DNA of 63,689 nucleotides, filler included, from Reclinomonas americana ATCC 50394 (GCA_048213135.1; 9 parts of 5 records of this genome joined end to end with filler, not necessarily neighbours in it), one strand, 5' to 3'; shown: positions 928 through 59,936, numbered from the whole stretch's first letter. The notes: generated by a model not told the origin, from the letters alone. Translations and numbers: made by a program.

Positions 928-3405
928 GCGCTTGGCGCCGCCAGCGGCAGCCGCAGCTGCTGCCGCGGCGGCGGACACTGAATTCGGGGCACCCACTGAC
1001 TGGTGCTGGTAGTGGTGCACTTGCTGCTGCTGCATAGACGCTGCGACGGCGGCTGCCGCGGCGGCCTGCTGTCCGTAAATGTCGTGCTGCACCGGGTGCT
1101 GCTTGGTGGGGAGGCAATGTGAGGGGAGCGATCAACCAATGCAGAACCACTAGACACACACAACACACACTCACCGTCACGTACTGGCTGTGACCGGCGT
1201 GCATGGCTGCGGCCGCCGAATAGTCGGACTCGGCTGGCGAGTACCAGTCGGAGCTCACTGGACCGCCGCGCATCATCTGCGGGGCAGCGGCCTGCGGCAC
1301 CGCGTAGTGCGACATGGACGGCATGGCGGGTGGAGGGGCCATCCCGCTGGATCCAGAGCCGTAGGCCGACATGCGACCTAGCAAGGGCAAACCAACAACA
1401 GCAACGAAGAGGGTGAGACGACAAGGGAAGAGACACACAGGCAAAAGTGTTCAGAGATGACCAGGAAAAGGAAGGAAGGAGTTCGAGGATGAAGGAAAGA
1501 ATGTAGTGTAACCAGTCGTCTCGACAGGTCATGGCTCAGAGGCTCATTGGCGAGATAGCGTGGACACTTTTTTGGTTTGCTCTAGCACAGTGCATGAACA
1601 CGCTTCGACACAATGGTGTATTGTGATGGCGCTGCCTGGAGAATTGCTGTGCGGGATAGATGGATAGAGAGGAAGAGGAAGAGGAAACTGACAGGATACA
1701 GAAAGCAGAGAGTGTACGTGTTACGCAACTGCGATCCTGGTACACACTGGCTCCCATGGGCTTGCGTCGCTTGTACTCTGGCTCGTCGTACCGATCGCTC
1801 GAGTACGCACTGTGATAGCCACTGCTCGACGACGTGGCTGCATCGATACAACACAGCGGTAAGTCGTCGCAGCAGACTGTGAGACGCAGCAAAACAGCAC
1901 GCAAAACACACCATACGCCGTGGAGGACGACGACGATTCAAAGTCGCGACCGCGCTTCGGATTCATCACCGTTGTTCTCATGTCGTTCTTGGCCACCTCG
2001 ACGCGCAACCGCAGCGATGAATTCGGGTCAAACACCACACCCTGCCATCAAAAACNNNNNNNNNNNNNNNNNNNNNNNNNNNNNNNNNNNNNNNNNNNNN
2101 NNNNNNNNNNNNNNNNNNNNNNNNNNNNNNNNNNNNNNNNNNNNNNNNNNNNNNNNNNNNNNNNNNNNNNNNNNNNNNNNNNNNNNNNNNNNNNNNNNNN
2201 NNNNNNNNNNNNNNNNNNNNNNNNNNNNNNNNNNNNNNNNNNNNNNNNNNNNNNNNNNNNNNNNNNNNNNNNNNNNNNNNNNNNNNNNNNNNNNNNNNNN
2301 NNNNNNNNNNNNNNNNNNNNNNNNNNNNNNNNNNNNNNNNNNNNNNNNNNNNNNNNNNNNNNNNNNNNNNNNNNNNNNNNNNNNNNNNNNNNNNNNNNNN
2401 NNNNNNNNNNNNNNNNNNNNNNNNNNNNNNNNNNNNNNNNNNNNNNNNNNNNNNNNNNNNNNNNNNNNNNNNNNNNNNNNNNNNNNNNNNNNNNNNNNNN
2501 NNNNNNNNNNNNNNNNNNNNNNNNNNNNNNNNNNNNNNNNNNNNNNNNNNNNNNNNNNNNNNNNNNNNNNNNNNNNNNNNNNNNNNNNNNNNNNNNNNNN
2601 NNNNNNNNNACCGTCAGCGAACACATTGCACACAGCGACTCTCTGACAACAACATGCAAACCTGCAGATGCTCAATGGCGCCCAACGCTTGCTCGTGCGA
2701 CAGGAACCGCAAAAACGCACACGTCTGCACACCACCACATGAGCGAATGCAAAGGAGAAGCAGGAGGAGGAGGAAAAGAGAACGCAACTCCCTTCTTTGT
2801 GGGTCTCACGGAGCCGCCCTCGTAGCCGTTCAATGTGCGGCACAACAAGTGGATCTCGCGATCCGTGGCATCCGGAGGCAGGCCCGACACAAACAGTGTC
2901 CTCACGCGGTCTCCACCATTGCCGCCACCACTGCCACTCGCACCCTGCACGCACACAAAAAGTGAGCAAGCGGCGCTGGCACAATAAGGAGTGACATTTC
3001 CCGCAGACAAGACACACAAAGTTGCGACGCAACGGCGTGCGCGGAGAGGAGAGGCAGCGTAGGCGCGAGATAGATGGGAATGCACGCACGCACGAAAACC
3101 ACACGGCTCGTGCAAAGAGAAACAAAACGGCCAGTGTGAAATGTCACCCAACACAAAACAAAACACACACACACACGCTTTCTCTCTCGTCACCTCCCCT
3201 GTGCTCGCTCCCCTTATTGAGGCACACACGCACACGCAACTGCATCATCATAATCGTCGTCCGCCTGCGGGATTTCCTCGTCTTGTGCAGCGGCACTTGA
3301 AGCATCGCCACCGCCACTTGCAGAATCGCTGGCCGACGCGGCAGCCATGGCAGCGGTGATGGCCGCCGCCGCCGCCGCCGCGTCTTGGCTCAACAAGTCA
3401 GCCAT
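928..3405 (-). CDS. RBPMS/couch-potato/Scw1-type RRM protein, multi-exon, N-terminal RRM followed by an A/Q/S/Y-rich region
   Basis: Spliced: MADLLSQD...|GASG...VRTLFVSGLPPDATDREIHLLCRTLNGYEGGSVRPTKKG|TCAFLRFLSHEQALGAIEHLQ|GVVFDPNSSLRLRVEVAKND. This matches the RBPMS pattern RTLFVSGLP...RE...GYEG...FDP...LRLEFAK. Exon structure between about 1380 and 1650 is uncertain. Confidence 0.8.
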
Positions 3406-3462
3406 AAAATAGGTGTTGCAGGACTGCAGTGTGCGGGACGACGACGACGACGTGACGCTGAC

Positions 3463-4496
3463 ATGGAAGCGGGGAGCGGTCGCGAGTACCTTGAGCAGCA
3501 CGGGGTGGTGGCGTTACTGGAGGACGTCGTCGCCTCGGTGCTGGAGACACGCGAGGAGAATCCACTGGGAGAGATTGCCGATTAGTTGCGCACAGACAAC
3601 TCCCGCCTCCTCGCCGATGTCTCACTGCTGTGCTTGCAGTTTCGCTACGGTGGTCACCGGCAGCAACATCATACAGCGCGAGTACGGCTACATTGTGTTG
3701 CGGCGCGACAATCGTCGTGCCTTTTGTCGACATTTCTTTGAGGTGTTTGCGCGTTTCTCCGTGTTGCGATCGCGCAACAATGGTGGTGCGTCGGCCACTG
3801 AGTCGACTGGGACAGCAGCAGCGGTGACGGAAGACGAAGCCGGTGCATCATCTTCGTCATCACAATCGCAATCGCAGTCGCAGTTGATACTGCCCGAGTT
3901 TGTGGAGTTGCTGCGCGTGTTGACCCCGGACTTCCCCAGTGATGTGCGCGATCATCTCCTGCCGTTCCTGCACATGCAGCCGGGCGGCGTCGATGTGTGG
4001 GAGACCACGTTTCTCTTTGATCACATGTACGCCGCGTTTTACTTGTGGTTTGTCGATATGGGTGAGTCAGTCCGTGTCGTGCTCTTGCTTTCTCGCTTCT
4101 CCTGTTCTCGCGTCTCACCTCCCGCTCGCAGACTTGTGGGTGTCGGCCGACCGTCTGTTGAGCACATCGATGGCGGCCTCGTGTGCGTCGCTGTCGGTGC
4201 GGTTACGCGAGTTGGCCGAGGAGCGCGGTCGCCTCGCGCAGTGGGAGCCGATCCTCGACGCCGTGGATCGCATTGGCGCCGAGCTGGGCTCCAGCACGCA
4301 CATTACGTTTGAGATGCTGTGCTTCCGCGTGGCGCGCGACATGATGGCCACCTCGAGCACGGGCGGTGCCGCCAGTGCCACTGTCGGCTCGCACTCTCTC
4401 ATGCCGCCCCTGTCGTCGCGCGGATTTGCACCACCGGTCTCTGGCTTGGCGGTCGACGACCTGGGTGTGACCCCCCGTGTGACAAATCCCTCATGA
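3463..4496 (+). CDS. CSTPP1: CSTPP1/C11orf49-like tubulin polyglutamylase complex regulator, 3 exons
   Basis: Spliced: EYLEQHGVVALLEDVVASVLETREENPLGEIADY|FATVVTGSNIIQREYGYIVLRRDNRRAFCRHFFEVF...EFVELLRVLTPDFP. This parallels C11orf49 (EYL...EDAV...YF...REF...NR..F...LLCPDFP). Confidence 0.75.
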
Positions 4497-4936
4497 ACAA
4501 TGTGCATGCAATCGTGTCGAAGGGAACGCTTTTCATGTATACCAAAGTAAGTGGAGGGGGCGACGGGGGGGGGCCATACGACGACTAGTGCACACACACA
4601 CAGACAGTTCTCTCCTTCTCAAAAAAGAAAAGAAAACAGAAAGGATTGTGACGCGAGGCAGCCGAAAAAAATCAGTTCAGTGGACTGCCGACACACGCAC
4701 ACAAACCCCACAAACACTCACACTCACTCGCACACAAAAGCACGTCGTCTTGATAAAATAAATCCGCACGCACGCACGCTCACATAAAACACGATGCAAC
4801 CGAGGAAGATCGCGGGCAACCGGAAGTAAAGAATGAAAGGTAGGGGAAAACTGATGCACAAAGAGACTGCATGTGTAGGTGGCAGGCGAGGGAAAAAGAT
4901 GCCACACCGCCGCACATGAGCATCGTGACGTCACGC

Positions 4937-7464
4937 TTAGACGTAAGCCGGCACGACCTCCGTGTCGACCTGGGCGGTCAGACCGTGCTCCAGGATGCGC
5001 TTGCGCATGATCCAATCCTCGTGGACGTTCATGACGGCGAGCGCGGCGACCAGAATGCGGCCCCTGCAATTTGCGGAAATAAGAGTCAGTATCTGTGGAT
5101 GATAAGGGATGGGATAAAGATTGAGAAACGCAACTTGTCCTCGAGCGACAGATCAGCGCTGCGGTCGGCGCCGGTCTTGTCGCGGTTGCCCACACCGGTG
5201 ATGCCCTCAATGGTGTAGGTCTCGTGGCCCTCGTGGCTGTGCTCAAAGTCGAGATCCGTGTCGACGGCGAGGTACGAGACGGGGCAGCATGAGCAGGCGC
5301 CGACGCAGTTGCACCAGTACGACTGGTTGAAGGTGATGCGCTTGACGACGCGGAGAGCGTAGTACTCGGTGTGGCTGTCCATGACCAGGCCGCAGCACGG
5401 GGTGCGCACAGTGGCGCTGGTGATGAGGCGCTGAGTGGTGATGTACAGGTCCTTCGTCCTCTCGCGCGGGCAGCAGCAGCAGGTGACCAGGCGGCACGGC
5501 ACGCAGCACAGGCAGCGCACGCAGCAGTTGCCGTACGGGCGGCCAGACACTTGAGCCAGCAGCACCTCTTGCGGCTGTGCACAACAACAACAACAACAAC
5601 GAGTTAGCTCACTCTTCCTTTTGCATCCCCGCCCCTTCCCCCTCAAAAAAACAACCACGTACCACTCCATGCTGGTTCTGCGGGTTGGCATCGAGCAGCA
5701 GCACGTCATCGTCGTCACCCGGGCGCTTGAGGTCCTCAGCGGCCAGGTAGGGGTGCGTGTCGGTGCGGGTAATGGCCAGAGCGCCGGGGTTGAGCACCTC
5801 GAGCAGCGGCGTCTCGGTGTGCTGCAGCATCAGGCCCTTCAGGAAGCCCTCCAGCGCAGTGTCCTTGTCGCTGGACGTGGACACCGTCTGGTTCACGCCC
5901 TCACCCTCAATGACGATCTTGCCAAAGGCGGTGAACAGGTTGACGAAGTACGACTTCTTCAGGCAGCAGCAGCAGTGGCCGCAGCACGCCATGCAGCTCG
6001 ACTCCTCCGAGTAGCGGTAGGTGTGGAACGAGGTCATGACCCAGGACGAGAGCTCCAGGTAGAACTCCTCCACGCCGTGCTCGTTGGACGGCACCAGGCG
6101 CGGCACCGACTTGGCACCAGTGGTGTGCAGGGTGTAGCGGATGAGGCGGCGATCAGTGATGAGGAAGTACTCGCGGCGAATGCTGGCGCAGTTGTCGTAG
6201 TTGATCTTGGTGATGAGCAGCCAGATGCCGAGGGTGATGATCGACAGGATGCACACAGTGCACGTGCAGAAGCGGACGCGCCCGGCAAAGCCGTCGTACA
6301 CCAGCTCGCCGTCGACGAGGCCCCAGGTGGAGATCGGGTTGGTCGGGGTGGCCGGGTCGAGCGGCACCACGCGGTCGCGGTCAAACACCGTGTAGTCCTC
6401 GGTCTTCTCCAGCGCCACGGCACGAATGCGCGGGTGGTTCTGGGTCTCGGGGCGCTGCGGGTCCCACTTGACGCCACGCTGAGTGTACTTGGCCGGGTGG
6501 TAGTACAGGATGGCGGCGAGCATGTTGGTCATGTCGCGCATGCCCGTCTGCAGCTCCACCTCCATGCGCATCCAGGCGCGGTTCTTGCGCACGCGAGCAC
6601 CACCGCTGCTGCAGCACTGTTAAAGGGGGAGGAAGGAGGGGAGGTGAGAGACCGGAAGAAGAAGAATAAGAAGGCAAACAAAAAAACTCACGTTGTAGGC
6701 GCACTCAATGCACGGCTTGCAGCAGCACAGGCAGCACGAGATGCAAATCTGGCTGGCGTTGCCACCGCGGACCTTGGCCTCGAGGTTCGGGTACTCGAAG
6801 AAGTACAGGTCGACCTCGGTCATCGGCACAGGCTTGGTGCGGCAGAAGCAGATGCAGTTGCAGCATGGAATGCAGCAGAGCCAGTCGCCGCAAGTGTAAA
6901 TGGGCTGCGTGAACAGCTAGTGAGCGACACGGAGCGAGAGGGAGAGGGAGAGAGAGAGAGAGGGAGCGAAAGGGCGCCGCACCTGAGTGTAAGAGTGGGT
7001 CTCATGCGCAAAGTTGCGCACAAAGAACGACGTCTGCTCGTACTCGACAATGTTGTTGGAGGCGTCAAGCGTCAGAATCCTGCCATGGCACAAATGAGCA
7101 ATGGGCGAAACAACGCATAGCATTGATGGCGAGCAATGCTCACATGTGAATGACACGGCGCGAGGTGACGAGGAATCCTCCAATTTGCTTCTTGCGCATG
7201 CACGCGTAGAAGCCGAGGGTGATGATGCACAGGAAGCAAAACACCCACGGGTTGCGGCGGGTCAGGCCACCGGCAAACACCGCGAAATCGCGGCTCTGCT
7301 CGGCGCCATTCTGCACCACAAAGCTGCGCACCAGAGCCCTGTGACCAACAAAACACGTCAGCCCACCGGATACAGCAATACGAAACATGACCACCAATGT
7401 GTATAGTACGCAACGCAGGCTCGTTGCCAGACTGCGCGTCAGGTCCAGGCGGGTTGACGGACAT
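4937..7464 (-). CDS. Cys-rich membrane protein with three repeated hydrophobic plus [FY]xxTxRRxI modules (bacterial-PH-like)
   Basis: About 7 exons with strong GC3 bias. Repeats are LCIITLGFY...FLVTSRRVI, ILSIITLGIW...YFLITDRRLI and CLCCVPCRLVTCCCC...LYITTQRLI. The protein ends EVVPAYV* at 4937. Confidence 0.7.
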
Positions 7465-7575
7465 GATGACGGTGCTGCAGGAAGTGAGAGGAGGGGGCGA
7501 GTGTAAGTGGCAATGTCGAACACGCCATGTTNNNNNNNNNNNNNNNNNNNNNNNNNNNNNNNNNNNNNNNNNNNN

Positions 7576-7587
7576 TTAATTAATTAA
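7576..7587. other. Artificial all-frame-stop contig linker N..TTAATTAATTAA..N (also near 13717, 26562, 30645, 44165, 58588, 59992, 61340)
   Basis: An identical 12-mer embedded in N runs eight times. Confidence 0.97.
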
Positions 7588-7631
7588 NNNNNNNNNNNNN
7601 NNNNNNNNNNNNNNNNNNNNNNNNNNNNNNN

Positions 7632-9927
7632 CGGCGGAGGTGGGGGACCGGAATCTAACGCACACGCACCCATGTGTGAGAAAAACTGCACTTGGTAGGC
7701 GGATATGCAAGCAAGCGCTCAGAAGCAGTACCTCGTCGACCACGATTGTCTCGTCCACCGCCAGGGCCACCGCCGTCGCCACCGCGTGCGCGATTGTCGT
7801 GAAGCTCTGCAGCGTGAGGGCGAGTGTGAGTACGCGCGTGCGACCTGATACACCAGATTGCGGACGCAACTGCGGAATGACGGGAAGAGACGCTCCCAAC
7901 ACGCGCGAATCACGTCCATTTCTCCGGCAAAGAAGGCCGGCTGTGCACGCACACCTGGTGAACAAAAAAATCGAGGCAGCGCACCACACAAAATACACTC
8001 ACCACGCCAAACTTCTCGCACTTGGAAATGGCTCGGTAGCTCTCGCTAATCACAATGGTGGACCGGATGTTGCGACGCTCTGCGCGGTGACGGAATGAGA
8101 CATTAATGTGTGTGTGTGTGCGCGCGCGTTCACAATAAAAAGAGATGAAAGACTCACCAGCGTATGCGTGTGAGATGGCAAACTGCGTAATCATTTCCGC
8201 ACGAGCCTCGGATTGATTGGCGCCGGGCTTCGGCGGCGGAATCGGACCGTACATGTCCGGTCCGACGATGCGCAGCAGGCCCTGACGGTGGTTGTCGGAG
8301 ATGCTGCCAATGAGATCCGAGCGCACACTGTCAACGGAAGGGCGGTCGTCAGCTCCTGGCACACTTCCCATTGTGATAGAACGCGACTTGCACAGCAAAC
8401 GCAACGGACGAAGCACGGCCGGCACATCGGCATCGAAAATGTCGTCGTAGTCAATGTCAAACACCATGATGTTCCACGGGTTGATCCTGTTCTCGGCAGC
8501 GTTCAACTCCTGCACACAGCGCACGTCCACGTGTGAGAACACCACCGTCTGTTGTTTTAGCTCCCACTGTCAACACCGTCACGCACCAAGACCATGCGCG
8601 CCAAGTCCTTCATCGCGTACCGCAGACGCTTCTGGAAAATACTGTGCAGGTCGACAATCACCACGCCACCGCGCGGGAACAGACGTGTGCGCCAGTGCGT
8701 GGTCCACGTGAGATCGTTGCGATCGAGCGTCTGCTGGAAGTGGTCCTCGGTGACCGAGTGCACAATGCACTTGGTGTTGAAGAGCAAATCCAGCAGTCGA
8801 TGTGTGTGGATAAAGTGATCGGATGCCACCAGTCCGCGGGACAGCTGAGGAGACCGAGCCCGTGAGTACACACACACACAGAACAATGAAAGAACCGCAC
8901 ACGCGATAGTCACGCACCCAAATCTGATCCGTGAGCTCGACGCTTGGATCGACAATCTTGCACAGATTGCGTTCCTCAATCGCATGCGCCAAATCGGCAG
9001 TCTTGGCCGAGTCCGTAATCACCGCCGTCTTCATCATCTGTCACACAGACACACAATGGTCAGACGGACATGTGGCTGCTGCTGCACACAGACACACACA
9101 CCTCATTCCTTCGCTGCGCGTGCCACGGACGGGTGTCGGCCTTGGCAATGAGCAATGGACGGCGCGCAGCCAGTCGCTCTTCGTGTGTCAGATCCTTGGC
9201 GTTCAGTACGGCCTGCAGGTTCGGGAAGCGGCGAGAGTGCGACGGTCCACCCGAGGCGTCAGCACCGTGCGCGCGCGATGAAGAGGCACCAGTGCCACCA
9301 GCGGCGGCGCCGGCAGCGGCAGCGCCACCACTGCCAGCAGCAGCAGCAACANNNNNNNNNNNNNNNNNNNNNNNNNNNNNNNNNNNNNNNNNNNNNNNNN
9401 NNNNNNNNNNNNNNNNNNNNNNNNNNNNNNNNNNNNNNNNNNNNNNNNNNNNNNNNNNNNNNNNNNNNNNNNNNNNNNNNNNNNNNNNNNNNNNNNNNNN
9501 NNNNNNNNNNNNNNNNNNNNNNNNNNNNNNNNNNNNNNNNNNNNNNNNNNNNNNNNNNNNNNNNNNNNNNNNNNNNNNNNNNNNNNNNNNNNNNNNNNNN
9601 NNNNNNNNNNNNNNNNNNNNNNNNNNNNNNNNNNNNNNNNNNNNNNNNNNNNNNNNNNNNNNNNNNNNNNNNNNNNNNNNNNNNNNNNNNNNNNNNNNNN
9701 NNNNNNNNNNNNNNNNNNNNNNNNNNNNNNNNNNNNNNNNNNNNNNNNNNNNNNNNNNNNNNNNNNNNNNNNNNNNNNNNNNNNNNNNNNNNNNNNNNNN
9801 NNNNNNNNNNNNNNNNNNNNNNNNNNNNNNNNNNNNNNNNNNNNNNNNNNNNNNNNATTTGCGCTCTCGCCGCACCAGACAAAGCTCGATGGGTAAATCC
9901 ACCACTCTGCCGGACCGGCCGATACAT
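7632..9927 (-). CDS. Unidentified multi-exon protein, 3' end incomplete
   Basis: Exons join in frame through GT-AG introns: ...RPWHAQRRNE|MMKTAVI...DQIW|LSRGLVASDHF...DLARMVL|ELNAAENRINPWNIMVFDIDYDDIF. The candidate ATG at 9927 lies beyond a gap and is tentative. Confidence 0.55.
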
Positions 9928-9964: not shown

Positions 9965-12900
9965 ATGTCGGGTGGCCACCACGCGCTCTCCGCGGTGGCG
10001 ACGGCTGCGCGTCATGCGCAGGCGAAACACCCCTCTCAGCAGGCACACAACAGTCAACAGCAGCAGCCGCAGCAGAGTCATCACCATCATCCGTTGGCGT
10101 TGCCGGTGTTGGTGCCGCCCAGCAACGCCGCCCTGGCACAGCAAGAGGCCGCCGCGCGACGCTTTCAAGCCGTTGACCGTGAAGTTTCGTCACATGTGTG
10201 TGTGGGTGAGGGAGGGGGGCGAGGAAAGGGGAGTTCATCCACGCATATATAACGGATGATCGTTTGCAATATACTCTCTCACTCACGCTCACACTCTCTC
10301 TCCGTGGTCAGCATCGGCGTCGGTTCAGCACCAAGCGACCCAACACGGCTCGTGCGTCGGTGAATCTCGAGGAGCAGATGGGATTGCAGGGGAGCAAGCG
10401 GATACTGTCACCGCGCAAAGGGCAGCGAAGCCAGCAGCAGCTCCAGCAGCAGCAGCAGCCGAGTACCGTGGCGTTCGTTGAGCAGCGACGAGGCTCGCTA
10501 CCGACGCGGAATCCACCTCCGTTGGAGGGTGGTAGTGTGTCGTCGCCAAGTGGGACGGTGGTCACCACGGCGTCGTCGTCGGGGAATACGCTGGCGAGTC
10601 GAGTGATGGCGAGTATGGCAGCGGCCGCGGCGGCGGCTGCCGAGGAACCGATGCTAGCGCCGCTGTCGGGGCAGCCGAGTCGTGCAGTGAGTCGCTCGCA
10701 GGCTCATTCGAGCACGGGCTTCCACTCGGCGCGTAGTGGGGGAATGGCGGCCGCCACGGCGGCTGCGCAATCAGCAGAGGATCCGTCGTATCGTGCGGTG
10801 CGCATGCAGGTGTCGGCGTTGCTGGAGTCGTGGACCGACCCGACTCCCCGCATGATTGTGGCGGCTGGTGGTCTGGTGGGCTCACGAACAGGTCCACGCT
10901 CCGCCTCCTCGCCTCCGGTGCCGCCCGGCCGCACCATCTCACCAACGCACCTCGACGAGGCGTGGTCGTCGAATGGAACGGGTCTGGTCGCCCGCAATGC
11001 GCCCTCTTCGGCCGACATGGGTGCGCGATTCCGTCGGCGTTCTCCCGCTGCAGCCTTCTCCGTTTCTTCGTCGGCCCTGCGTGGTGTAGCTCTCGATCCG
11101 AAACGTTGTGTGCTTGCGGTGGAATGCGACAGCTCAGAGCGATGCTGGAGATTGCTCACGCTCGTGTGATTGCTGTGGGCAGATCGAGAGCAGAATGGCA
11201 GTTCTTCGCTGGCGATGGGTGTGCCGAGTCTCGATTTGTCACAGCTGCCACCGTCAGGGACGCTGGAGATGGACGCGGCAGAGTATTCGGCGTCGCACTT
11301 GATGAGCGCCTCGTCCATCTCCAGTGCCGCCGACATGGCAGCCGACTGGGCCGAGTTTGAAAAGGTGGGCGATCGCTGCGTCGTCCACACAGCAGTGTTG
11401 AGTGAGCATGCAGACTCACACTGTGGTGTGTGCAGCTCTCACACAAGGCGCTTGACGAGTTGTACGAGAGCATCGTACGCAGCCTGCAGGAATTGGTGGC
11501 GGCAGGGTCGGACGTGCAGTCGATCAAGACGCTGCGACAAAAGTTGCGCTCGCTGCAAGAGTACACTGCGCACGATTCGGCCTCGGCCAGGCAACACAGG
11601 TTGGTTGACGCACCCCACGTTGAGAGTACTGGGGCATGCCATTCACGATGCCTTGTCACAGTTACGAGCAGCAGCAGCGTCCACGGTCTCGTCAAGCTAC
11701 GGCGTTTTCCGGCGGGCCCATCAACCCTCCGGTGCGCCTCGTGTTACCATTGTGGCAGTCTCTTTGTTGACACACTGATGGGTGGGCCTGTGGCAGACGG
11801 AGTTTGTGTTCGATCCCGGGGCCGCCGGCTTCAATCCACCGCCCAATGATCCCTCCTCGCCAGCCACACTGGTGCCGTCCGACGACGAGACAGAGGGAGC
11901 AGATGCAGGAGTTGAGATCTTGATGTTCGAGGTTGTTGCTGAAGAAGAATGGTGCACTCATTTCACTGTCGCACAGCGAGGACGGCCGCTCAGCCGATCG
12001 AAGAGTGGCAAGCTACGACAGTCACCAGCCACTCGCAGTTCTGTGCGAGTTGCTCTGTGTATGTGCGCGTGCGATGTTTGCTGACAGGATCTGTGCTCTC
12101 TCTCTCTATCTCCCTTCCTCTCTCTCTCTCTCCTTGCAGTGTCCGTGTCGCCACCGAATGTGTCGGGCCAGACATCGCCGCGTGCAGTCAGTCAACGAGT
12201 CATCGAATTCCCACTGGAGCATCCACTGGCCATCGCTGGAGCCAGCGGGCAGTCGATGTCGAGGTTGCAAAGACATCCGAGTGCCACACGTACGAGTGGT
12301 ACTCTTGGTGGAGGGTGGACAATGTCAGTCGACAGCAATGCAGGCGGTACGTGTGCTTGCTGCGTGCTTTGTAAGAACTACATGCTGACGCACACTTCGN
12401 NNNNNNNNNNNNNNNNNNNNNNNNNNNNNNNNNNNNNNNNNNNNNNNNNNNNNNNNNNNNNNNNNNNNNNNNNNNNNNNNNNNNNNNNNNNNNNNNNNNN
12501 NNNNNNNNNNNNNNNNNNNNNNNNNNNNNNNNNNNNNNNNNNNNNNNNNNNNNNNNNNNNNNNNNNNNNNNNNNNNNNNNNNNNNNNNNNNNNNNNNNNN
12601 NNNNNNNNNNNNNNNNNNNNNNNNNNNNNNNNNNNNNNNNNNNNNNNNNNNNNNNNNNNNNNNNNNNNNNNNNNNNNNNNNNNNNNNNNNNNNNNNNNNN
12701 NNNNNNNNNNNNNNNNNNNNNNNNNNNNNNNNNNNNNNNNNNNNNNNNNNNNNNNNNNNNNNNNNNNNNNNNNNNNNNNNNNNNNNNNNNNNNNNNNNNN
12801 NNNNNNNNNNNNNNNNNNNNNNNNNNNNNNNNNNNNNNNNNNNNNNNNNNNNNNNNNNNNNNNNNNNNNNNNNNNNNNNNNNNNNNNNNNNNNNNNNNNN

Positions 12901-15900
12901 NNNNNNNNNNNNNNNNNNNNNNNNNNNNNNNNNNNNNNNNNNNNNNNNNNNNNNNNNNNNNNNNNNNNNNNNNNNNNNNNNNNNNNNNNNNNNNNNNNNN
13001 NNGCCAGAGTTGCGATGAGGACAAACACACACTGTGGAGAAACAAGCGGGACGCAAGCGCAACGACTGTGCGAGAGCATCGTCGTTCCATGCCACAGACA
13101 CTACGCACACACACACACAGAGAGAGAGTTGAGAAGAGGCGCACACACAACAAAGCAACACAGCACACAGCCGACGCACAATCGACATCCCACCCAGCAA
13201 TGCCGTCCACCAGCGGTGAGCCGCCATTGAAATCGACACCACTCAACGAGCGCATACGATGAAACGCAGCGCGTGGCGATAGTTCGTCACTATTGGTGCG
13301 CTCTGGCGGCTTGCCAAACGCCGACCGCCGCTGGGCGCTCGACGAAGCCGATGTTAGCGCGCTTCCGGTCAACTGGTCGTCCTTCGAGCCCTCTGCAGAT
13401 TGCTCTTCCGGCTGGCGTCGGTGTGCTGAGCCCATCAAGGATGGCACGGACGGTGCCGATGGCTGTCGACTGTGGTCGACTAGTGGCGGTACTGTGGGAT
13501 CAACAGCACCACTGCTAGCACCACTGGCAACTCGCCGATCGCCCCGGAACAAGATGTCGCGGGTGCGCGATCGAGGTGGCACTGCTCGAACCAGCACCGC
13601 GTCGACAGGAACGTCGCCAGCAGCGACGGCTGGTGGTGGCTGAGAGACACCATCGGTTTCGTCTGCAAAAAANNNNNNNNNNNNNNNNNNNNNNNNNNNN
13701 NNNNNNNNNNNNNNNNTTAATTAATTAANNNNNNNNNNNNNNNNNNNNNNNNNNNNNNNNNNNNNNNNNNNNAAGCAGACCGTATTCGGACAGGAGAGCG
13801 GTGCCACCAACGCAGCATCACTTCCGCATGCCCGTAATACCGCATGTGCCACCGCCGCCAATGGATGACTTGCAAATGTCGGATGAATCCTCGGCCCGCA
13901 GTCGGAGAAAGCGGAAGAAGAAGTCGTTGCGTGGCTGGCTGGCTTTCTGTGTATCAGTTGTGGATGCACACTTGCTGAGTGGCACGCATGCTTGCACAGG
14001 AATTCGGCGGCAATTGCGCAGTCGGGCATTCGCGAGCATCTGATCAGTGCCTCTGCAACCGACCGCCGTGTGCGCGGTGAAGTGCGCAACATTTCTGCTT
14101 ACGATATCGCATCGTACGCCGGCAGCAAGCTGTTTGTCGCGGGAGCGGCCGTCAGTGGATCACCACCGCTCAACAGTTATGATGCATGCGAATAGCAACT
14201 GGTGACTCGTGCTCACTCGACTCGTGCAGGTGGCGAGGCATCACCGCGATTGTCTCCGCGCGGCGGTCGTCGCGGAAGCGGTCCGCCTGGGTTCGGCTCA
14301 CCCGTGTCGGTCAATGATGCTGGCGACTTGGAGGGCTCGGAAGACGAGGGTGCTGTCGGTCGTCACGCTTCAGACAGGTGCGTGTATGCCCACTCCTCGG
14401 CAACCCCTATCCATGTTTGTTCATTCTGTGGTTGGTTGGTTTGCTGGTACGCGCAGGCACCCGAACGGCGGCTCTCCACTCGCCCCAAAACCACCACCAC
14501 CGTTGCGTTTCATTGGCGATGATATGTGCTCACGTCGTGTTGACTCATTGGTGATGCATTGTCATATTTCAGTCGCCTGGTGTTCCCGGCTCACCTGAAT
14601 GAGCGCTCGACATACACGGCCGGTGCACATGCAGAGTCGACCACTGCTGGGGCGGTGGCGACGGCCAATGTCGATCGCTTTCCGACTGTCGATGCTCCGC
14701 GACTGACACCGCGGTCCATGACACGAAGTCCACCCACTTCACCGCCCCACTCACCTCGAGAGTCGCCACGACCACCGCGCGGTCAGTCAACAGAGCCCAC
14801 GGAGAACCTCAGTCCACGTCACCGCCATGGAGTGCACTCGGCGCCGAGGTTACGAGAACGGCTGTCGGTGCAAGCTGAATCCGCCACAATGCACGCCGGT
14901 GCAGCCGGTGAGTGACTGACTGACGGAATGACTGTTCTTTTTCTGTTGTTACATGGTTCCTCACGGACAGTCGTTGCTTGCAGAGCGTTTCCACCGACCA
15001 CCCTCCAGTCCACCCGGTTCATCATCGGTGTTGGTGCGTCTGGATCCGAACTACCGAGAGGGAGAACCAGCGGCCAGCTCAGCGTCGGCGGCGACGGACG
15101 AGGCGAGGTGAGTCAGCGGAATTTTCTTGTATTTGGAGTGATCATTGCTGCTAACTGATCGCGTGTGTCGCCAGAGAAACTGCCAAGACGTACTTGGCGG
15201 CTGTGCAACCGCGCATGAGCCGAGTGACGCTCTCCAAAGAAGCGCATTCCGTAGATCCACTGGACGATTTGCTGGAGCGTCAACTGCTGGCGCACGCCGA
15301 CGTGTCGATTGAGGGCATGGTGGCGCAACGAAACTACGAACTGGAGGCAGAAGCAGTTGTGGAGCGCGCCGCCCACACCGAGTCTCACGGGCAGTTCAAG
15401 GCGACACTGGGTGCGCGGCGCAGCAGTCTCGGTCACGTCGCCACCGGCATGTCCAGGGTGCCACTTGAGCCGTCGGCAAGCGGCATGAACTCGCCAGCCA
15501 GCGGCGGTCTCGCTCACATTATTCTGCCACATGCAGCCAGTCCTCCGCAACTGAACGACGTGACCATGTCGTTGCGTGCCTTTTCTTTTTGTGGCTCACC
15601 CATTTTTTCTGGTCTGCATTCTCACCCCGCAGAGCACGCTTGCAGACCACCGCCCAAGCCACCAGGGTACGCTCGCCAACGATCCGTGTCACCCCCGCCA
15701 CCGGCCCCGCCACCACCGTTTGCACGCGGTTGGTCGCCAGTCGACAGCTCCACCTCTCCACCACCGCCCGGTGAGGAGCAACTGGATTTGGATGAGATCG
15801 TCCGTTTGAGTGGTGGTCGGGCCGTGACCGCTCTGGGCACTGCTGGCGACCACCCGACACCCTCCACCGCCATGTTCACGTTGAGACCATTGTCGACGCC

Positions 15901-48430: not shown

Positions 48431-51400
48431 ATGGAAGGTGCTCTGCAGCGACGCGTGCACGGCGCCAACTCGTCGCATTATGCGCGCCTGCGTGGTTGGA
48501 AACTGTACTTTTACCCCGACAATCACGTGCGTCTCTCTCTCTCTCATACACACACGCGTACACACGTCTTCCTGTCTCTCCTCCCTCTCTCTCTTTCACT
48601 CTCAACTGTGTGCGTGTGCGTGTGCGATCGGAGATTTTCCTCATCAGCTCTCTCACCTCACATCGTGCAGGCGACTGATTACACGGATTCGCTGCTGTTG
48701 CGCGGAATGGAGCTCATTGACACGGGAAGTGCAGTGTTTATGCTGCACGACACCAAAGGCCAAGTCACTCATCGGTGAGAGACAGACAGAGAGAGAGAGA
48801 GACAGGGAAGGAGAGAGAAAGAGCTCATGTGTTGCTCTTGTGCGAAAAGGTTGCAAGCGGATAGTGTGGACGACGAGAAGAAGTGGATTGCGGCGCTGTG
48901 TCAGATGATGGAGGTGTGCATGCGCATCCCCTATGCATGTCAATCGGTGAGAGGGCCTCCGATTCACGTACATGCTCACAGGTCATTCAGCACAATGAGT
49001 TGCCGCTGGATCATCCGTCGCGACAGGTTCCTTGCGTGTTTCTTCCGTGCGTCCCTCCCCTCTCCCTCTCTCACGCACAGACGGGATGCAGATCATGTCG
49101 CCACGATCCGGACGGTTCGACTATTCACCGGCGCTGCAGCAGCAGATGCATCAGCAGCAACAGCAGCAACACTCGCATGAGCACAGTGCGGCGCCGATTG
49201 TGTCGCCAGAGGATCCGCTCACGTTGGCGCATCGTAGTCCTGTGCAGCGGGTGTTTGCGGATCCGGAGGCCACTCTGACGGTGAAGACATGTCATTTTTT
49301 CGCTCGCTGTTCGGTTTCTTGCTGAACGTGATGCGCTGCAGCTGGTATTCCCGGAGGGCTGGGCCGAGCTGGAGCCGGTGAATGAGACGCAGATCACGCG
49401 GTTGATTATCAAGTCGGGTGTGGGATTGGAGTTACGTGTTGCTGGGGTTTTTGGATTTTTGGTGTCGTGTCCGGACATGCTCACCCGTGAACTGTGCAGG
49501 CTCGGCACGATTGCGCTGATGCGAGAACACGTGCAAACCGACGTTAATGGCGCCTGTACGGTCGACGACTACCTGTGGGGCTTCTTTGACTCGCTCAATG
49601 GCGCACTGGAGGGTGTGTACTCTTTTAGCTGGCAAGCGAGGATATTCAGCGTGACTCACAGTTTTTGCACAGAGATTACGCGCGTGCCGGTGGTCATGCT
49701 CGGCAACGTGGTGATGCCATTCTCCACGCCTGACGAAGCCTTCCTCGGGCACGATGGCCTGCAGTTTTTCGCCTCCCATGTTGCGCGCTTCTGACACGTG
49801 ATGTTCACGTGTGTTCCGTTCGCTCACTGTGTCTCTCTGTGTGTTCGTGCGGCAGTCGGCTCAACAAAAAACACGATTCTGGTTCTTTCTGTGTGTGCTG
49901 CTTCCCACTTCAGTCACCCGTGCTCACATGCCAGACCCTCCTCCACGCACAGGGTGGTGTGCATTCAAGTGGGCACCACGTTTTACAGCTGTGCATTGAC
50001 GGCCGCCGACTCAGCATTTGACAAGTGCAAGGAGGCTGTCGACATGATGCTCCGACGGTGCACGCTGATTGGCGACGATTCAGAAGCCAGCTCGGCCACC
50101 ACCTCCGGTACGTGCCCTTTTTGCTGTCTTTGCCACCTCTCGCTGACCGTGCTCCCACAGAGGAAGAGTCGAGTCTGCCAACTGCCGTCACGCCGCTGCA
50201 AATGCCGTCGTCGAATCCGTCACCGCAGCCTGCGGCGGACCCGGAGCAATCGTCGCCCGTGTCGCCACAGCCGACGTTGCAGCGCATACCCTCGATGGCG
50301 TTCCAACGCCCGCCACCACCGCCACCAACAGTAGTGCAAGCACAAGCAGTGGAGGCGCCACCTTCGCCCCCGCAGCCACCACAGCCGCAAGTGGAAGTCA
50401 TCCCGGAGCCGGAAATCGCGGAACCCCTGGACGACATCTTCGAAGACACAATATCGGTGGTGTCGTACTCGCACGGTCTCCGCGTGTCCATGTCGGAGGA
50501 CTGGAAGCTGAGTTCGGATGGCGAATCGTGGTTGGCATGGGAGCGGGATGGTACAGAAATCAAATTGTTATGCGACGAGGACGAGGCGCCCATCTCGTCA
50601 GACATTGCCTCGGTGGAGGTGGGTTGGGCTGAGTGGAGCAAGAACAGTCGGAGTAGTTGCTCATCGCTGCGCACAGCAACGGGTGGCTGGATTTGTGGAG
50701 GACGACAGCGAGGTGCGGATGCTGCTGGTCGATTGCAACGACCAGCACATTCCGGTGGCTGAAGTACACGAGGTTGGTGTGGTGAGGGGGGAGAGTGGAG
50801 GAAGAGGATGCTGACCAGGGTTTGAGTTTGCAGGATGGCGTGCGCTACCAGTTTTGGTTCTTCACCAGCGGCGTACGGTTGGTGGAGGAAGAGAGTCAAA
50901 AACGCACAGAGTGCATTATATCTCATCGTTCTGTCGTCTGCAGCATCATATGGCTCATTTTTGCGTCTCCTGATGATCTCGAGTTGCGTCGCGTGGCACT
51001 AGCTGCTCTCCTGCCACTTCATTGCCTCACTCCTTCTCTCTTTGCAGCTTTGACGCGGGGGAGATTCACGAAATCGCCTCGTCGGTGCGCTTCATTGACC
51101 CGGCAACCGGCGACCTGTCACGCATGAGACCAGTGTGGGAGTACGCTGCCGTGTGCGACAAGCCACGCTGCTTGTGGGAGTACGAGATTGCACCACCGGC
51201 GCGCTGCTCTGTCTCCATTCCCGGCTGGTGGACACCATTGTCGCAGGTGTGATTGTTTTCTCCTCCTCGTCTTCTCACCGCAAGCTGCTGTGTGTCGCTC
51301 ACTGACGGCGCCCGCCGCTGCAGCGGATACCACTGGCACTCATGTCGTTCCTCATTGTGAGTGGCACGGCTGGACAATCGCTGTTCCAGGTGGTCTCGGA

Positions 51401-51769
51401 GGAGAGACCAGAGGGCATGACTCCACAAGAACACTTTGAGTTGTCGGCCAACTCCATGATGGAGACCTGGTCGTTCCTGAAGGACACGAAACCCACGTTC
51501 GGCCGTCACCTGGGTCGCTTCGACTGCTACGAATTCGGCGGCACCTTTACGCCGGCCCCCGGCGCTCGCGAGACCACCGTGTACAATAAGTTGCGTGTCT
51601 GCGGCTCATGTTTGTTTTTGCTTCTTGCCAGCGCACTCACCACCATGACAGGGTGATTTTGGGCAACACTCGCATCTTTAGTGCCCAGTTCCTCGGCAAC
51701 GACTCACAAGTGCCGCATCACCTGCGGCTGGTCAAGCACCTCACGCACTCGCTCCTCGCTGTCAGTTGA
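48431..51769 (+). CDS. N-terminal PH-domain protein with a Pro-rich linker and repeated alpha/beta C-terminal domains
   Basis: MEGALQRR...YARLRGWKLYFY...HR|LQADSVDDEKKWIAAL is a typical PH pattern. The gene has many exons and ends LTHSLLAVS*. Confidence 0.7.
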
Positions 51770-51903
51770 AGCAATCACGATGGACGATTAAAAATTTTGC
51801 ACATCATTTTTAAAAAGTGTCTGTGTACTCCTCCCACGCAGGGAGGGGGTGATGCAGTGAGAGAGTGGTATCATCTCACCGTGTCTTCTTCTTCCTTGCC
51901 TTC

Positions 51904-52883
51904 CTACTGCTGCTTCTCCCACTCACGGACGAGGTTCTCCAGCTTGGCATGCAAATCCTGCAGGGTCGTGGCGTTGATAATGTAAGCGTCGGCCAGGGCC
52001 ATGGTTTCGCGGACACGCTGTCCGGCGCCCTCTCCATACGACTCGCGATCGTCAGCCTCCAAGAACGTAAGCAATGTTGCGGTGGGATCGGCCTCGCGGG
52101 CACGCTTCTCACAGCGCTGGAAACGCAGCTGGGGAAGGGAGAGAGAGCGAACAGTCAGCTGTGTTTCTGTGCCTGCGTTGAGTGTACAGTCTCTTCCGCT
52201 TGCTGTCACTGCTGTCATGCGGGTCACGCCCGACAATAACAACAGAGCCGTGTGGAAAAGACAAGAGAGAGCGGACCAAGCACGCAACAGCCATGGGTGC
52301 ATCGAGAGCAATCAAGCGGAACTGGGGAATGGCGGCACGGAGAGCGCGGACTTCGTCGGGGTGGCGGATCGAGTCAATGATGAAGCCGGCGGGGTGCTTC
52401 TGCTCACCCAGTCACCGAGTGAGCGAACGGAACGCGGAACATGTGGGCAGGGAGACCCAGAGCTGCTCACCTGCTGCTCCTCGGCCTGGATGTAGTCGAC
52501 GGCCTTGACGCCGAGCGCACCAGGTCCGTACTGTGTGCGCAGCTCGTTGCCCTCCTTGCGCAGGTTGTCACTGAGAGAGGAGTCTGGTCGGTCAATGACA
52601 TGCAAGTCGTGCATGCAAAATGCAAAATGCGCACCGAGTGACTGCATCGGGGCCAAGACGAGCGGCAATGCGAGCACGCAGCACGTTGCTGAGCGAGAAT
52701 GCCATGTAGCCACGCGCGCGGAAAAAGTTCAGAACCTCCTCCTTGCCCGCGCCTTGTCACACACATGCATGAGTCACAGCGATGGAGAGAAGGAGAGGAG
52801 AGAGAAGGCGCACCCATGCCACCGCAGACGCCAATCACACGCGCCACCACACGACGAGACGGTGCGTTCTCCGTGCCAGTCAT
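51904..52883 (-). CDS. UPF0200/CoaE-like P-loop nucleotide kinase (archaeal/CPR-type), with introns
   Basis: Spliced: VIGVCGGMG|AGKEEV...FSLSNVLR...TR|DNLRKEGNELRTQYGPGAL...IIDSIRHPDEV...LIALDAPMA|LRFQRCEKRAREADP...FLEADDRE...MALADAYIINATTLQDL. Confidence 0.8.
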
Positions 52884-54080: not shown

Positions 54081-54578
54081 TGAGACCTGTGTAGTATACG
54101 TTCTTTTTCTCTTCTCTCCACGTGTGTGCGTTCATTTCTTATGCAAAGAGGAGTCGGAGGCCCATGAGAATGCAGCCAATGGAGACCACGGGGCTCAGGC
54201 GGTTGCCCACCACTGTGGCCTTGTAGACCATGCTCGAGAAGCTGTGTGTGGCGAGTGAGCTCAGTGGTGACGATTTTGCGCGCTCGCGAGTTGGTGCTCA
54301 CCCCTTCTTCTGTGGGTCAAAGTACTGCGCAAACATCCTCTGTTGGCCAGCATGTGTGTGTGTGAGAGAGAGAGACAGTGGTGCGCACAAAGAGGGAGAG
54401 AGCGCAACGTAGGACTGTGCGTATGGCTTGATGTAGGTGCATGTGCAGATGAAGAGCAGCACCACCGTGAGCACCACGTCAAAGTTGAGAAGCGCGAACT
54501 TGTCAGAGAGGAAAGTGAGTGGAGCGCACGTGTGGGAGACAGCATAGAGCGTATGCACGCACCACCATTGCTCACACG

Positions 54579-55442: not shown

Positions 55443-55468
55443 GTGGCCTACGTGCGCTGTGTTATATA

Positions 55469-58484: not shown

Positions 58485-58673
58485 GGCGATTGAAGTTGGC
58501 TGGGTGATCCATCGGGTCCGTTGAGCATGTGTGCCAATCACACNNNNNNNNNNNNNNNNNNNNNNNNNNNNNNNNNNNNNNNNNNNNTTAATTAATTAAN
58601 NNNNNNNNNNNNNNNNNNNNNNNNNNNNNNNNNNNNNNNNNNNTCACACACTCACACACTTTGAGCGCACACC

Positions 58674-59936
58674 ATGAGCGTTTACGAGGAGACGCTGGTC
58701 ACCATCCCCTGTTGCGTGTGTGTGCGCGTGTTCTCATTTGCGCGCGCGTGTGTGTGTGTGTATGACGTACTTCTCCTCACTTCTCTCTCTCTCTCTCTTG
58801 TTCTCTCTTGTTCTCTCTCTGTCTCTGTGTGTGCGTATACACACAGTGTGCCACGTGTTCAGGTACGCGACTAGTCGCTCCACATGCACAAATTTGCACA
58901 TTTTTCTCATCATATCTCATCTCTATCTGTGTGTGCCATGTGTCTTTTGTGACATAGGATTCCACCGCGTTCCACTGCGGGTGGCTACAAGTTGCGCTCT
59001 TTGTGTGCAGCACCACACAACATCTTTCATTTGCTCACAAGCGCGCGCACGTACACAAAAAAGGGCGCAAGATTGGGAGGGCAACAACATCTGGAATGGA
59101 CGTTGCGTGTGTGTCTCTGTGTGTGTGTGTGTGTCTCTGTGTGTGTTGCGCTGGTTGGTGCTTACGAGATCATTGTGTGTGTAGGATGCCGTGTCGTGGC
59201 GCGCGGTGATGACTGCGAAATCCGACTGGAGGAAACCGATGGTGGTGCGTGTCCACCCTCTCTCCTTCTCCTCTCTCCCCGCTCTCCTCGCTTTCCGCTC
59301 ACGTGCCTTCGTGCAGGCGAGCTGTTTGCCGTGTGCCCTGTGAATCCGGGCGCGGTGGAGCGCGCAGAGGACTCGCGTCGCTACTTTGTGCTGCGCGTGG
59401 AGGATGGCAGCGGTGCGCGTGTGCTTTTGCTTTCGTGTGTGTGCCTCGCTGCTGCTTGCTGAGTCGCTTGTACAGGCAAGCATGCGTACGTGGGCCTGGG
59501 CTTTGACCAGCGTGGTGAGGCTTTCGATTTCAATGTCGCCCTGCAAGATCACCAAAAGACGGTGGATCGCATGCGCAACCCCGAGGCGCACGGTGTGCCG
59601 CTGTCGAAGATGTCGGATGAGTACGCGCTGAAGGACGGCGAGAAGATCTCGGTCGACATTTCAGGAGTTGCGTTCGCGCGCGTGCAATCGTCCATGCTGT
59701 GCACCACCGCTGAGCGACCTGTTTCCATGTGTGAGCAGAAGGTGAAGACCAAGGCCAAGGGCGAGAAGCCTTCGGCCAAGGTACCAGTGGCTGGTGCCAG
59801 CGGTGGCAAGGGCATTTCGCTCGGCAAGGCCACGCAGCGCTTGGCTGCGGACCCGGGCACTGGCTCTTCGTCGTCATCATCCTCCTCGTCTTCATCAACT
59901 GGCAAGTCGGCGAGTCTCATGGATGACTTCTTCTGA
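58674..59936 (+). CDS. NECAP: Adaptin ear-binding coat-associated protein NECAP, 8 exons
   Basis: Spliced: YEETLVTIPL|CHVFR|IPPRSTAGGYK|AQDW...WNGR|CRVVARG...|GELFAVCP...EDSRRYFVLRVEDGS|GKHAYVGLGFDQRGEAFDFNVALQDH...YALKDGEKISV. Confidence 0.95.

Follow-up and report, generated by a model that had tools for sequence, protein, structure and literature searches.

The DNA analysed here, referred to as the window, is a stretch of 63,689 bases (7,978 of them N) from Reclinomonas americana ATCC 50394 (GCA_048213135.1). It is gene-dense and eukaryotic nuclear in character, and among its genes are a NECAP gene, an alpha/beta hydrolase, a P-type ATPase, a Kish/DUF1242 gene, an RBPMS-like gene and sequences coding for Arm repeats. 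The introns are mostly 55-85 bases long and rich in GT and CT repeats, with more T than A on the sense strand. We describe a class of 5' splice sites (donors) in these genes which begin with GTTGCG and follow exon ends other than G. The analysis drew on the window sequence, homologous proteins and gene models trained on the window. Throughout, a slash marks the exon-intron border, +1 is the first intron base and -1 the last exon base; H stands for any base but G, R for a purine, Y for a pyrimidine and S for G or C.

Introns and gene models

Introns were modelled ab initio by combining a three-periodic Markov model of coding sequence with intron composition, an acceptor matrix and a bonus for branch sites; the donor term was 'GT' only. 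Exon bases never enter this model, so the composition of exon ends is an unbiased read-out. Two posteriors were obtained for each listed site, one from the flat donor model and one after expectation-maximisation with a self-trained table for +3 to +6. In addition, the 271 open reading frames (ORFs) of at least 100 amino acids in the window were searched against Pfam, with few matches.

A first Viterbi model with flat signals gave 45 introns in total and read through those of the NECAP gene. In the Viterbi parse with the GT-only donor term GTTGCG was the most frequent donor hexamer (11 of 130), and in the forward-backward calculation with the same term it again ranked first, with 16.5 of 164.7 expected introns, GTGCGT being second with 7.3. 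Self-training raised its share to 24.5 of 161.2 expected introns; among donors with a posterior of at least 0.8 it accounted for 22 of 115. Judged by these models the class seems to comprise 10-19% of donors, or about every sixth intron. These models are noisy; they missed a NECAP exon of 16 bases, read through stop-free introns whose length is a multiple of three (3n introns), and missed or shifted some donors proven by homology.

The 3' ends of GTTGCG introns resemble those of other introns, having YTSAC branch-like motifs, CAG and lengths mostly of 55-84 nucleotides (nt). The pattern [CT]T[GC]AC was found at -45 to -6 of 72 of the 127 modelled acceptors as against 18% of random windows, and in the same interval CTCAC, CTCAT and CTGAC, all branch-like, are 4- to 4.5-fold over-represented. 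A branch motif followed by YAG in a suitable layout lies downstream of 23 of the 32 sites of the class, compared with 20 of the 51 other occurrences of GTTGCG (P = 0.006). At nine places (e.g. 7532-7631, 13673-13772 and 58544-58643) two blocks of 44 N flank 12 readable bases; together with larger N blocks they may conceal some donors.

Donors beginning with GTTGCG

An earlier sequence-only reading, in which the genes had been spliced by hand, placed 24 donors beginning with GTTGCG and claimed that none of them follows G. The hexamer is present at all 24 positions on the strands assigned to it, and the last exon bases are as had been listed (A 14, C 5, T 5, G 0). The sites are given below; where two posteriors appear they are from the flat and the self-trained model.

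1724..1729 (-): A/GTTGCGT donor, RBPMS-like gene; posterior 0.69/0.98
2783..2788 (-): A/GTTGCGT donor within an RRM; posterior 0.56/0.89; 64-nt intron with GCAG acceptor
3235..3240 (-): A/GTTGCGT donor; posterior 0.98/1.00
3585..3590 (+): A/GTTGCGC donor; posterior 1.00/1.00; 55-nt intron with TCTCAC and TTGCAG
5129..5134 (-): A/GTTGCGT donor; posterior 0.99/1.00; 71-nt intron
13926..13931 (+): C/GTTGCGT donor; posterior 0.49/0.97
14502..14507 (+): C/GTTGCGT donor; posterior 0.33/0.97
15571..15576 (+): C/GTTGCGT donor, 3n intron; posterior 0.17/0.63; best solution 75 nt
16066..16071 (+): A/GTTGCGG donor; posterior 0.28/0.89
17006..17011 (+): A/GTTGCGT, weak donor candidate; posterior 0.01/0.05; sole support a branch and YAG layout at 74 nt
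17855..17860 (+): A/GTTGCGT donor; posterior 0.44/0.92; 62-nt layout with CTGAC and GCGCAG
19288..19293 (+): C/GTTGCGT donor, hydrolase, 84-nt stop-free 3n intron; posterior 0.08/0.64
19459..19464 (+): T/GTTGCGT donor, hydrolase, intron 19459-19523; homology; posterior only 0.02/0.06
27046..27051 (-): A/GTTGCGT donor, 60-nt 3n intron with ACTCAC and ACAG; posterior 0.09/0.29
37395..37400 (-): T/GTTGCGT donor; posterior 1.00/1.00; 66-nt intron
38236..38241 (-): T/GTTGCGT, donor candidate; posterior 0.00/0.00; models choose a GT five bases further on
44012..44017 (-): A/GTTGCGC donor between Arm repeats; posterior 1.00/1.00
50983..50988 (+): A/GTTGCGT donor; posterior 0.08/0.37; 65-nt layout with CCTCAC and TTTGCAG
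51590..51595 (+): A/GTTGCGT donor; posterior 0.15/0.70; 62-nt intron, good coding score on either side
52283..52288 (-): T/GTTGCGT donor; posterior 0.91/1.00
58711..58716 (+): T/GTTGCGT donor, NECAP intron 1 (58711-58846); homology; model posterior 0.01
58991..58996 (+): A/GTTGCGC donor, NECAP intron 3 (58991-59063); homology; posterior 0.39/0.93
59102..59107 (+): C/GTTGCGT donor, NECAP intron 4 (59102-59184); homology; posterior 0.41/0.93
59667..59672 (+): A/GTTGCGT donor, NECAP intron 7 (59667-59738), stop-free 3n; posterior 0.01/0.03, models read through

As the sequence-only reading had warned, the introns at 15571, 27051 and 59667 are stop-free and 3n. The posteriors for 17006, 27051, 38241 and 50983 never rose above 0.37 in either model, and a homologue search for the gene holding 3585 gave no match. 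Eight further GTTGCG donors were added by the models; every one lies on the minus strand and follows a base other than G:

7409..7414 (-): C/GTTGCGT donor; posterior 0.99; 76-nt layout with CTGAC and CACAG
8400..8405 (-): C/GTTGCGT donor; posterior 0.98; 78-nt intron, coding score on either side
29010..29015 (-): C/GTTGCGT donor; posterior 1.0; 65-nt intron
31153..31158 (-): A/GTTGCGT donor; posterior 0.95; intron of 71-74 nt
33500..33505 (-): T/GTTGCGC, possible donor; posterior 0.26 (first model) and 0.8 or more (second model)
35471..35476 (-): C/GTTGCGT donor; posterior 0.97
42169..42174 (-): C/GTTGCGT donor within an Arm repeat; posterior 0.96; 74-nt intron
54403..54408 (-): C/GTTGCGC donor, Kish/DUF1242 gene, intron 54325-54408; posterior 0.8; DUF1242 profile match

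Three variants that had been reported alongside the 24 sites were recovered at their positions (C/GTTGTG at 11105, A/GTTGGG at 27183 and A/GTTCCG at 60864), and a fourth was found in addition to them. On the gene models the class is wider than GTTGCG, and GTTACGT, GTTCCGT, GTTCTGT, GTTTCGT and GTTTTGT after a base other than G belong to it.

11105..11110 (+): C/GTTGTGT variant, same frame as the class; flat-donor Viterbi prediction, 78-nt intron
27178..27183 (-): A/GTTGGGT variant, fits both frames; posterior 0.96
49431..49436 (+): A/GTTACGT variant, absent from the sequence-only reading, shifted frame; posterior 0.98
60859..60864 (-): A/GTTCCGT variant, P-type ATPase, intron 60785-60864; tblastn; posterior 0.99

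The motif is over-represented without recourse to any model. GTTGCG occurs 83 times on the two strands of the window compared with 64.4 +/- 8.1 in shuffled sequences, none of 100 of which reached 83. The excess is specific both for the inserted T and for what follows it: GTTGCGT was counted 35 times, GTAGCGT 2, GTCGCGT 14 and GTGGCGT 16 times; NTTGCGT by its first base occurs 2 (A), 12 (C), 35 (G) and 5 (T) times; and GTTGAGT (6, as against 3, 12 and 10 with other inserted bases) shows no such excess, which is thus confined to GCGT. When gene spans were oriented solely by their coding score, GTTGCGT was sense 27 times and antisense 3 times (P = 8e-6), while GTTGAGT lacked a sense excess (4 and 2). 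Counts of this kind are confounded for GTGAG-type donors, whose antisense numbers are raised by the reverse complements of CT-rich introns and CTCAC branch motifs; the many antisense AGTGAGT strings are explained by their being the reverse complement of CTCAC-type branch-like motifs.

The sequence-only reading had described these donors as the local GTGCGT with one additional T, leaving C at +5, and the listed sites agree with this. A feature which it had not used is T at +7, found in 20 of the 24 listed sites, and in 26 of the 32 putative donors as opposed to 9 of the 51 remaining GTTGCG (P = 1e-8). In a set of 31 sites G is at +6 in all 31 (by selection), T is at +7 in 26, and none has an exon-end G. 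Only one of the 35 GTTGCGT is directly preceded by G; against a local background of preceding G of 17% for GTT, 15% for GTTG and 13% for GTTGC, this is a modest depletion (binomial P = 0.024). The claim that G/GTTGCG donors are absent held when all 11 GGTTGCG in the window were inspected, as none of them looks like a donor:

33625 (-): GGTTGCG directly after an acceptor ACAG
2009 (-): GGTTGCG within coding sequence
53527 (+): GGTTGCG within an open frame
54954 (+): GGTTGCG without a gene call
40142 (-): GGTTGCG, ambiguous, with GCG/GTGAGG six bases on
six occurrences: GGTTGCG antisense to gene calls

A conserved 5' heptamer combined with an apparent rule for the insertion site is also what would be expected of introners, i.e. 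relics of a mobile element that starts with GTTGCGT and inserts after a base other than G. In an all-against-all blastn comparison (word size 7) the 31 introns shared only the heptamer and simple GT/CT repeats, and their lengths and 3' ends are the same as those of other introns. We regard an origin from introners as extremely improbable.

Minor (U12-type) introns have the 5' consensus RTATCCTT and the branch-site consensus TCCTTRAY. The introns of the class have 5' ends of the form GTTGCGT, and there is no match to U11 or U12 in the window; a U12-type identity was accordingly rejected.

Position of the cut

Most of these sites are very probably real donors that are cut before the G of GTTGCG. 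All 31 GTTGCG sites have GT at the 5' end, and AG acceptors that keep the frame were found for the solved cases. The product spliced in this way is exactly collinear with homologues at 58711, 58991, 59102, 19459 and 60864, and consistent with them at 2788, 44017, 42174 and 59667 as well as, less firmly, at 54408.

The best example is the NECAP gene (58674-59936, plus strand), in which hand reading gave seven introns, their donors lying at 58711, 58863, 58991, 59102, 59245, 59413 and 59667. Its use of GTTGCG in four of seven introns, as claimed earlier, was confirmed. With the cut before G the N-terminal exons fit the homologues P0003-P0005 without a gap. Splicing at 58711 yields an N-terminus which, as far as the RIPP/KIPP motif, is as long as those of the homologues P0003 and P0004. 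The exon at 58847-58862 (+) is only 16 bases long and is flanked by introns of 136 and 95 bases; it is needed for an N-terminus of homologue length. The junction at 58991 is gap-free against P0003-P0005, and the split codon at 59102 yields the conserved Arg of the W/F-x-G-R motif, in accordance with the argument from this motif in the sequence-only reading. At 59667 the homologues pass from an I-x-V/I-x-I motif to a Lys/Pro-rich tail without a Cys-rich insert.

Similar observations were made in other genes. In the hydrolase, splicing of 19459-19523 gives a residue-for-residue, gap-free match to the closest homologue (P0126) across a split Cys codon; 19288 lies in a loop whose length varies among homologues, favouring neither splicing nor read-through. 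The Kish/DUF1242 exon ending at 54408 covers positions 2-21 of the 35 of the profile, and hand reading of four exons leads to a stop after 73 codons. For the P-type ATPase the alignment of P0006 by tblastn stops at 60863 and resumes at 60782 with ICSDKTGT, and no residue is gained or lost; P0006 is an ordinary PMCA whose match score is doubled by an internal repeat. The RRM exon ending at 2788 could be aligned to the RRM of MEC-8/RBPMS as far as its end, and a PDB search with the 36 amino acids of the exon that follows 2788 returned nothing useful. At 44017 the Arm profile reaches 37 of 41 upstream and restarts at 3 of 41 downstream, its positions being continuous across the junction; the exon upstream of 42174 ends at position 23 of 41 of the same profile.

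It might be argued that hand splicing has created the class and that many of the sites are not donors or are cut elsewhere, at a GC donor three bases further in, at a nearby GT in the same phase or, in 3n introns, not at all. A shift of 3 nt preserves the frame, so open frames by themselves do not discriminate, and three of the listed introns are stop-free and 3n. The models often chose a neighbouring GT, and seven listed sites scored no more than 0.1 in them. Moreover, a joint slide of both intron ends by one base escapes detection by homology alone where the base after AG is G. Such a slide was nevertheless rejected, as it would produce TT..GN ends, whereas GT and AG sit exactly at the boundaries that keep the frame. 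A GC donor three nucleotides further in, with the cut after GTT, was rejected too: it gives an in-frame TGA at 59102 and one residue too many, relative to homologues, at 58711, 58991 and 19459. Nor would chance sites be expected to show a strand bias of 27:3, the +7T, the exon-end rule and the bias in phase described below, or to provide the top donor of a parse that knows only GT. An artefact of this kind is therefore very unlikely.

Exon ends, frame and phase

The depletion of G at -1 relative to other donors, on which the sequence-only reading had laid weight, is very strong within the window models. Donors of the form GTRNG have an exon-end G in 30 of 39 cases and an exon-end A in none of the 39, while the exon ends of 22 GTTGCG donors are A (10), C (9) and T (3), with no G (Fisher P = 1.2e-9 against GTRNG). 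Donors with +3T and +5G (GTTTG, GTTGG and GTTAG) have an exon-end G in 11 of 15 cases. Grouped by the position of the G/T pair, an exon-end G is found in 41 of 53 donors with +5G and in one of 24 donors of the GTT-NN-GT type (P = 6.5e-10). The same tendency is visible in raw k-mer counts on both strands, without any gene model: G precedes 6 of 102 GTTNHGT and 74 of 324 GTTNG (P = 6e-5). The sequence-only reading had called this rule one-way, because ordinary donors may also follow bases other than G. Such donors do exist; for A, however, the rule is nearly two-way, exon-end A being found in none of the 39 GTRNG donors and in 10 of the 22 GTTGCG donors.

The local donor consensus is nearer to G/GTNNGT than to G/GTRAGT. 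Normal-register donors often have T at +3 after an exon-end G (G/GTTTGT, G/GTTGGT and G/GTTAGT; 14 of the 53 donors in the canonical frame), examples being 15919 (+), 57237 (-), 60315 (-), 11600 (+) and 60581 (-). The two classes can be covered by a compact rule. There is one string, G-[G/T]-T-N-N-G-T; when its second base is G the cut falls after the first G, and when it is T the cut falls before it, as the sole GU then lies one base earlier. In the four genes that are best fixed by homologues (NECAP, Kish, hydrolase and ATPase) 8 of 15 donors are of the shifted class; the seven donors after G have the normal frame and the eight after other bases, including the candidate at 19288, are GTT-shifted. 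The hydrolase also contains an intron (18916-18972, plus strand) whose donor, G/GTGCCT, has neither +5G nor the shifted G/T pair; this intron is backed by a gap of 19 residues in alignments to five hydrolase homologues.

Intron phase differs between the classes as well. Phase 0 was found for 5 of 24 shifted and 26 of 53 canonical donors (P = 0.025). Since synonymous changes in phase 0 will often allow an exon to end in G, this bias fits a class that is used at exon ends fixed by coding. The data thus support the view that the shifted class is favoured where the protein sequence fixes an exon end other than G.

Register of recognition

A possible explanation for the combination of a strict exon-end rule and a displaced consensus could lie in the register in which the 5' splice site is read. 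We tentatively favour, with a confidence somewhat short of even, shifted recognition by the standard small nuclear ribonucleoproteins (snRNPs), employed where the coding sequence rules out a G at the exon end. The introns concerned would be ordinary GT-AG introns of the major spliceosome with a 5' signal that is read one base deeper into the intron. The normal signal G/GTNNGT, with its +5G and +6T, would recur as /GTTNNGT and mostly as /GTTGCGT. The first G of the intron would then fill the slot of the exon-end G, the T next to it would fill that of the +1G, and the G/T pair would come to lie at +6/+7. The snRNPs would bind this string in the +1-shifted register, and the sole GU available, one base upstream of the usual position for that register, would be cut. 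Recourse to the class would be had where the protein does not permit an exon-end G: gain of a single T within the intron could convert a weak H/GTGCGT into H/GTTGCGT and leave the mRNA unchanged, an origin that we infer from the present-day sites. The strict avoidance of G would, as we read it, arise because exons ending in G can use the normal form, which is better, so that selection never favours the T. The observed pattern agrees with the prediction of a +1-shifted register, and to this extent the reading is partly supported; we infer that an RNA or protein component reads it in this way.

An alternative is a bulged register in which G+1 and U+2 are paired normally, U+3 is flipped out and GCGU is paired as +3 to +6, possibly also at the U6 stage. 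An intron side of GTGCGT with one additional T is in line with this. The pairing energies computed for the textbook 5' end of U1, averaged over the 31 sites, do not separate the two, the bulge being as poor as the shift (-0.40 and -0.66 kcal/mol; canonical register 0.0), and the U1 of the host may differ from the textbook sequence. One-base bulges at +2/+3 have been validated in human cells (PMC4856993). A bulge predicts, however, that an exon-end G should be as beneficial as in normal donors, where 30 of 39 have it; it is found in none of 22 GTTGCG donors (P = 1.2e-9) and in none of the 31 sites overall. Furthermore, a bulge only weakens H/GUGCGU, so there would be no reason for the T to persist. 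A bulged register is for these reasons considered unlikely.

Several observations weigh against the shifted register that we prefer. Every junction call rests on homology or models, and seven of the 24 listed sites score 0.1 or less in both the flat and the self-trained model. The shifted duplex with textbook U1 is negligible, -3.2 kcal/mol at best. In the normal register CAG/GUGCGU reaches -8.9 and CAA/GUGCGU -2.4 kcal/mol; since the latter, an H/GUGCGU site, is stronger than the shifted GUUGCGU mean (-0.66), the extra T brings no computed gain. Textbook U1 would also favour GUUGAGU (-5.1) over GUUGCGU (-0.7), and the window shows the reverse: GA at +4/+5 is found in 0 of 24 shifted and 10 of 53 canonical donors, GC in 16 of 24 and 12 of 53, figures that are partly inflated by self-training. 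If -1 of the shifted sites corresponded to -2 of canonical ones, about 23% G would be expected (9 of 39) and none was seen in 31 (P = 3e-4); G is therefore avoided more than a shift by itself would lead one to expect. Exon positions -2 to -4, which might have separated the registers, are too uninformative in the window to do so.

Some of these difficulties would disappear if the class were read by a dedicated or altered small nuclear RNA (snRNA). Candidates are a second U1 with a 5' end complementary to GUUGCGU, which might for example carry a changed base opposite +2, and a lineage-specific change of U6 or U5. Compared with the degenerate G/GTNNGT, the heptamer leaves far less freedom (T at +7 in 26 of 31; GC at +4/+5 in 16 of 24 compared with 12 of 53), the duplex with textbook U1 is almost nil in all registers and has the wrong preference (GUUGAGU over GUUGCGU), and GTTGAGT shows no sense excess (4 and 2), all of which favours the involvement of another RNA. 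On the other hand, GTT-NN-GT variants with TT, AC, CC, CT or TC are used after bases other than G too, and one perfectly complementary RNA would not account for them. A search of the window with Rfam gave no match at the gathering score, so that it contains no recognisable gene for U1, U5, U6, U11, U12 or any other snRNA. The 5' end of U1 and the ACAGAGA box of U6 are among the most conserved RNA stretches known, which likewise counts against this explanation. On balance we hold a variant snRNA to be rather unlikely. It would mean, with the same low probability, that the major spliceosome comprises two recognition systems, the ordinary one for G/GTNNGT and a second RNA, be it a variant U1 or an altered U6 or U5 contact, for H/GUUGCGU. 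In that case a dedicated snRNA species would be needed for about one intron in six, with the choice of system made by the base at the exon end.

The sequence-only reading had proposed a mainstream donor class recognised by shifted or bulged U1/U6 pairing or by a variant snRNA. Of this proposal the abundant class, the avoidance of G and the consensus moved by one base have stood; a simple bulge fits poorly and textbook U1 energies are negligible.

Relation to known 5' splice-site systems

For some human 5' splice sites recognition by U1 in a +1-shifted register is established (Roca and Krainer 2009, via PMC4856993 and PMC11162779), and noncanonical registers altogether are put at about 1.5% of human sites (PMC11162779). 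The human sites are like ours in that GU is at the cut, U is at +3, the consensus is displaced by one base, the first G of the intron occupies the exon-end slot and the cut is unmoved. They differ in being rare and in pairing well with U1, whereas here 10-19% of modelled donors are concerned, GUUGCGU pairs poorly and the exon-end rule is strict. One-base bulge registers (Roca et al. 2012; Tan et al. 2016, PMC4856993) share with our class a consensus with an extra base between +2 and +5, but keep the exon-end G pair, which is absent here, and they are rare in human: the predicted sites are 68 (+2/+3) and 51 (+3) of 10,248 predicted noncanonical sites (Tan et al. 2016, PMC4856993).

Two main groups of 5' splice site have been distinguished according to whether the exon side (U5, AG//GU) or the intron side (U6, //GURAG) predominates (PMC9803359, PMC11732430, PMC11842720). 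The trade-off between exon end and intron side, and the presence of two separable classes in one genome, are found here as well; there, however, both classes have one common register, while in the window the intron-side signal lies one base further in, with C at +5. A noncanonical U6 register has been described for the tandem donor of STAT3, and the G/T pair that is normally at +5/+6 pairs with U6 positions 42/41 (PMC11162779). This case is similar in that a displaced G/T pair can be used. It is a single human case with an upstream displacement to +4/+5, in contrast to a downstream displacement to +6/+7 in a whole class. In a literature search of partial coverage, which did not extend to supplementary files, we found no paper that names a GTTGCG or GUUGCG donor motif or a lineage-wide shifted class; what came up was work on splicing in human or in general, and chance occurrences of the string in sequences of several organisms. 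A metagenome scan for relatives of the organism yielded two loci, L001 (52% identical) and L002 (from an AT-rich organism), both too distant for a comparison of intron positions.

Noncanonical registers have so far been a small minority of human sites, proven minigene by minigene. If shifted recognition is confirmed, the genome examined here would offer a natural system in which to study how the cut site is chosen if U1 binds in one register and cleavage follows another, how U1 hands over to U6 with the G/T pair at +6/+7, and how coding constraint at exon ends shapes splice signals. In practical terms, gene finders trained on +5G will misplace donors of this kind.

Other features of the window

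A tandem duplicate is located on the minus strand (44244-45805 and 46146-47730, about 1,925 bases apart). Its two copies have ORFs of the same length and identical predicted introns, for example one with the exon end ctgt followed by GTCATGCT at 45370 and 47297, and one with the exon end gtc followed by GTGAGAAA at 45198 and 47123. Near the end of the window three predicted introns on the plus strand (61666, 63147 and 63482), of near-identical length (56-59 bases), have a common donor context, aag followed by GTCAGTGT. This suggests a repeated unit in the region 61.4-63.7 kb.

The region 24833-25789 (minus strand) contains an intronless gene for a homocysteine S-methyltransferase (Pfam PF02574, E 1.7e-36). 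It sits in the stretch of lowest GC content in the window (0.39) and its nearest Atlas clusters are bacterial; acquisition by gene transfer is possible.

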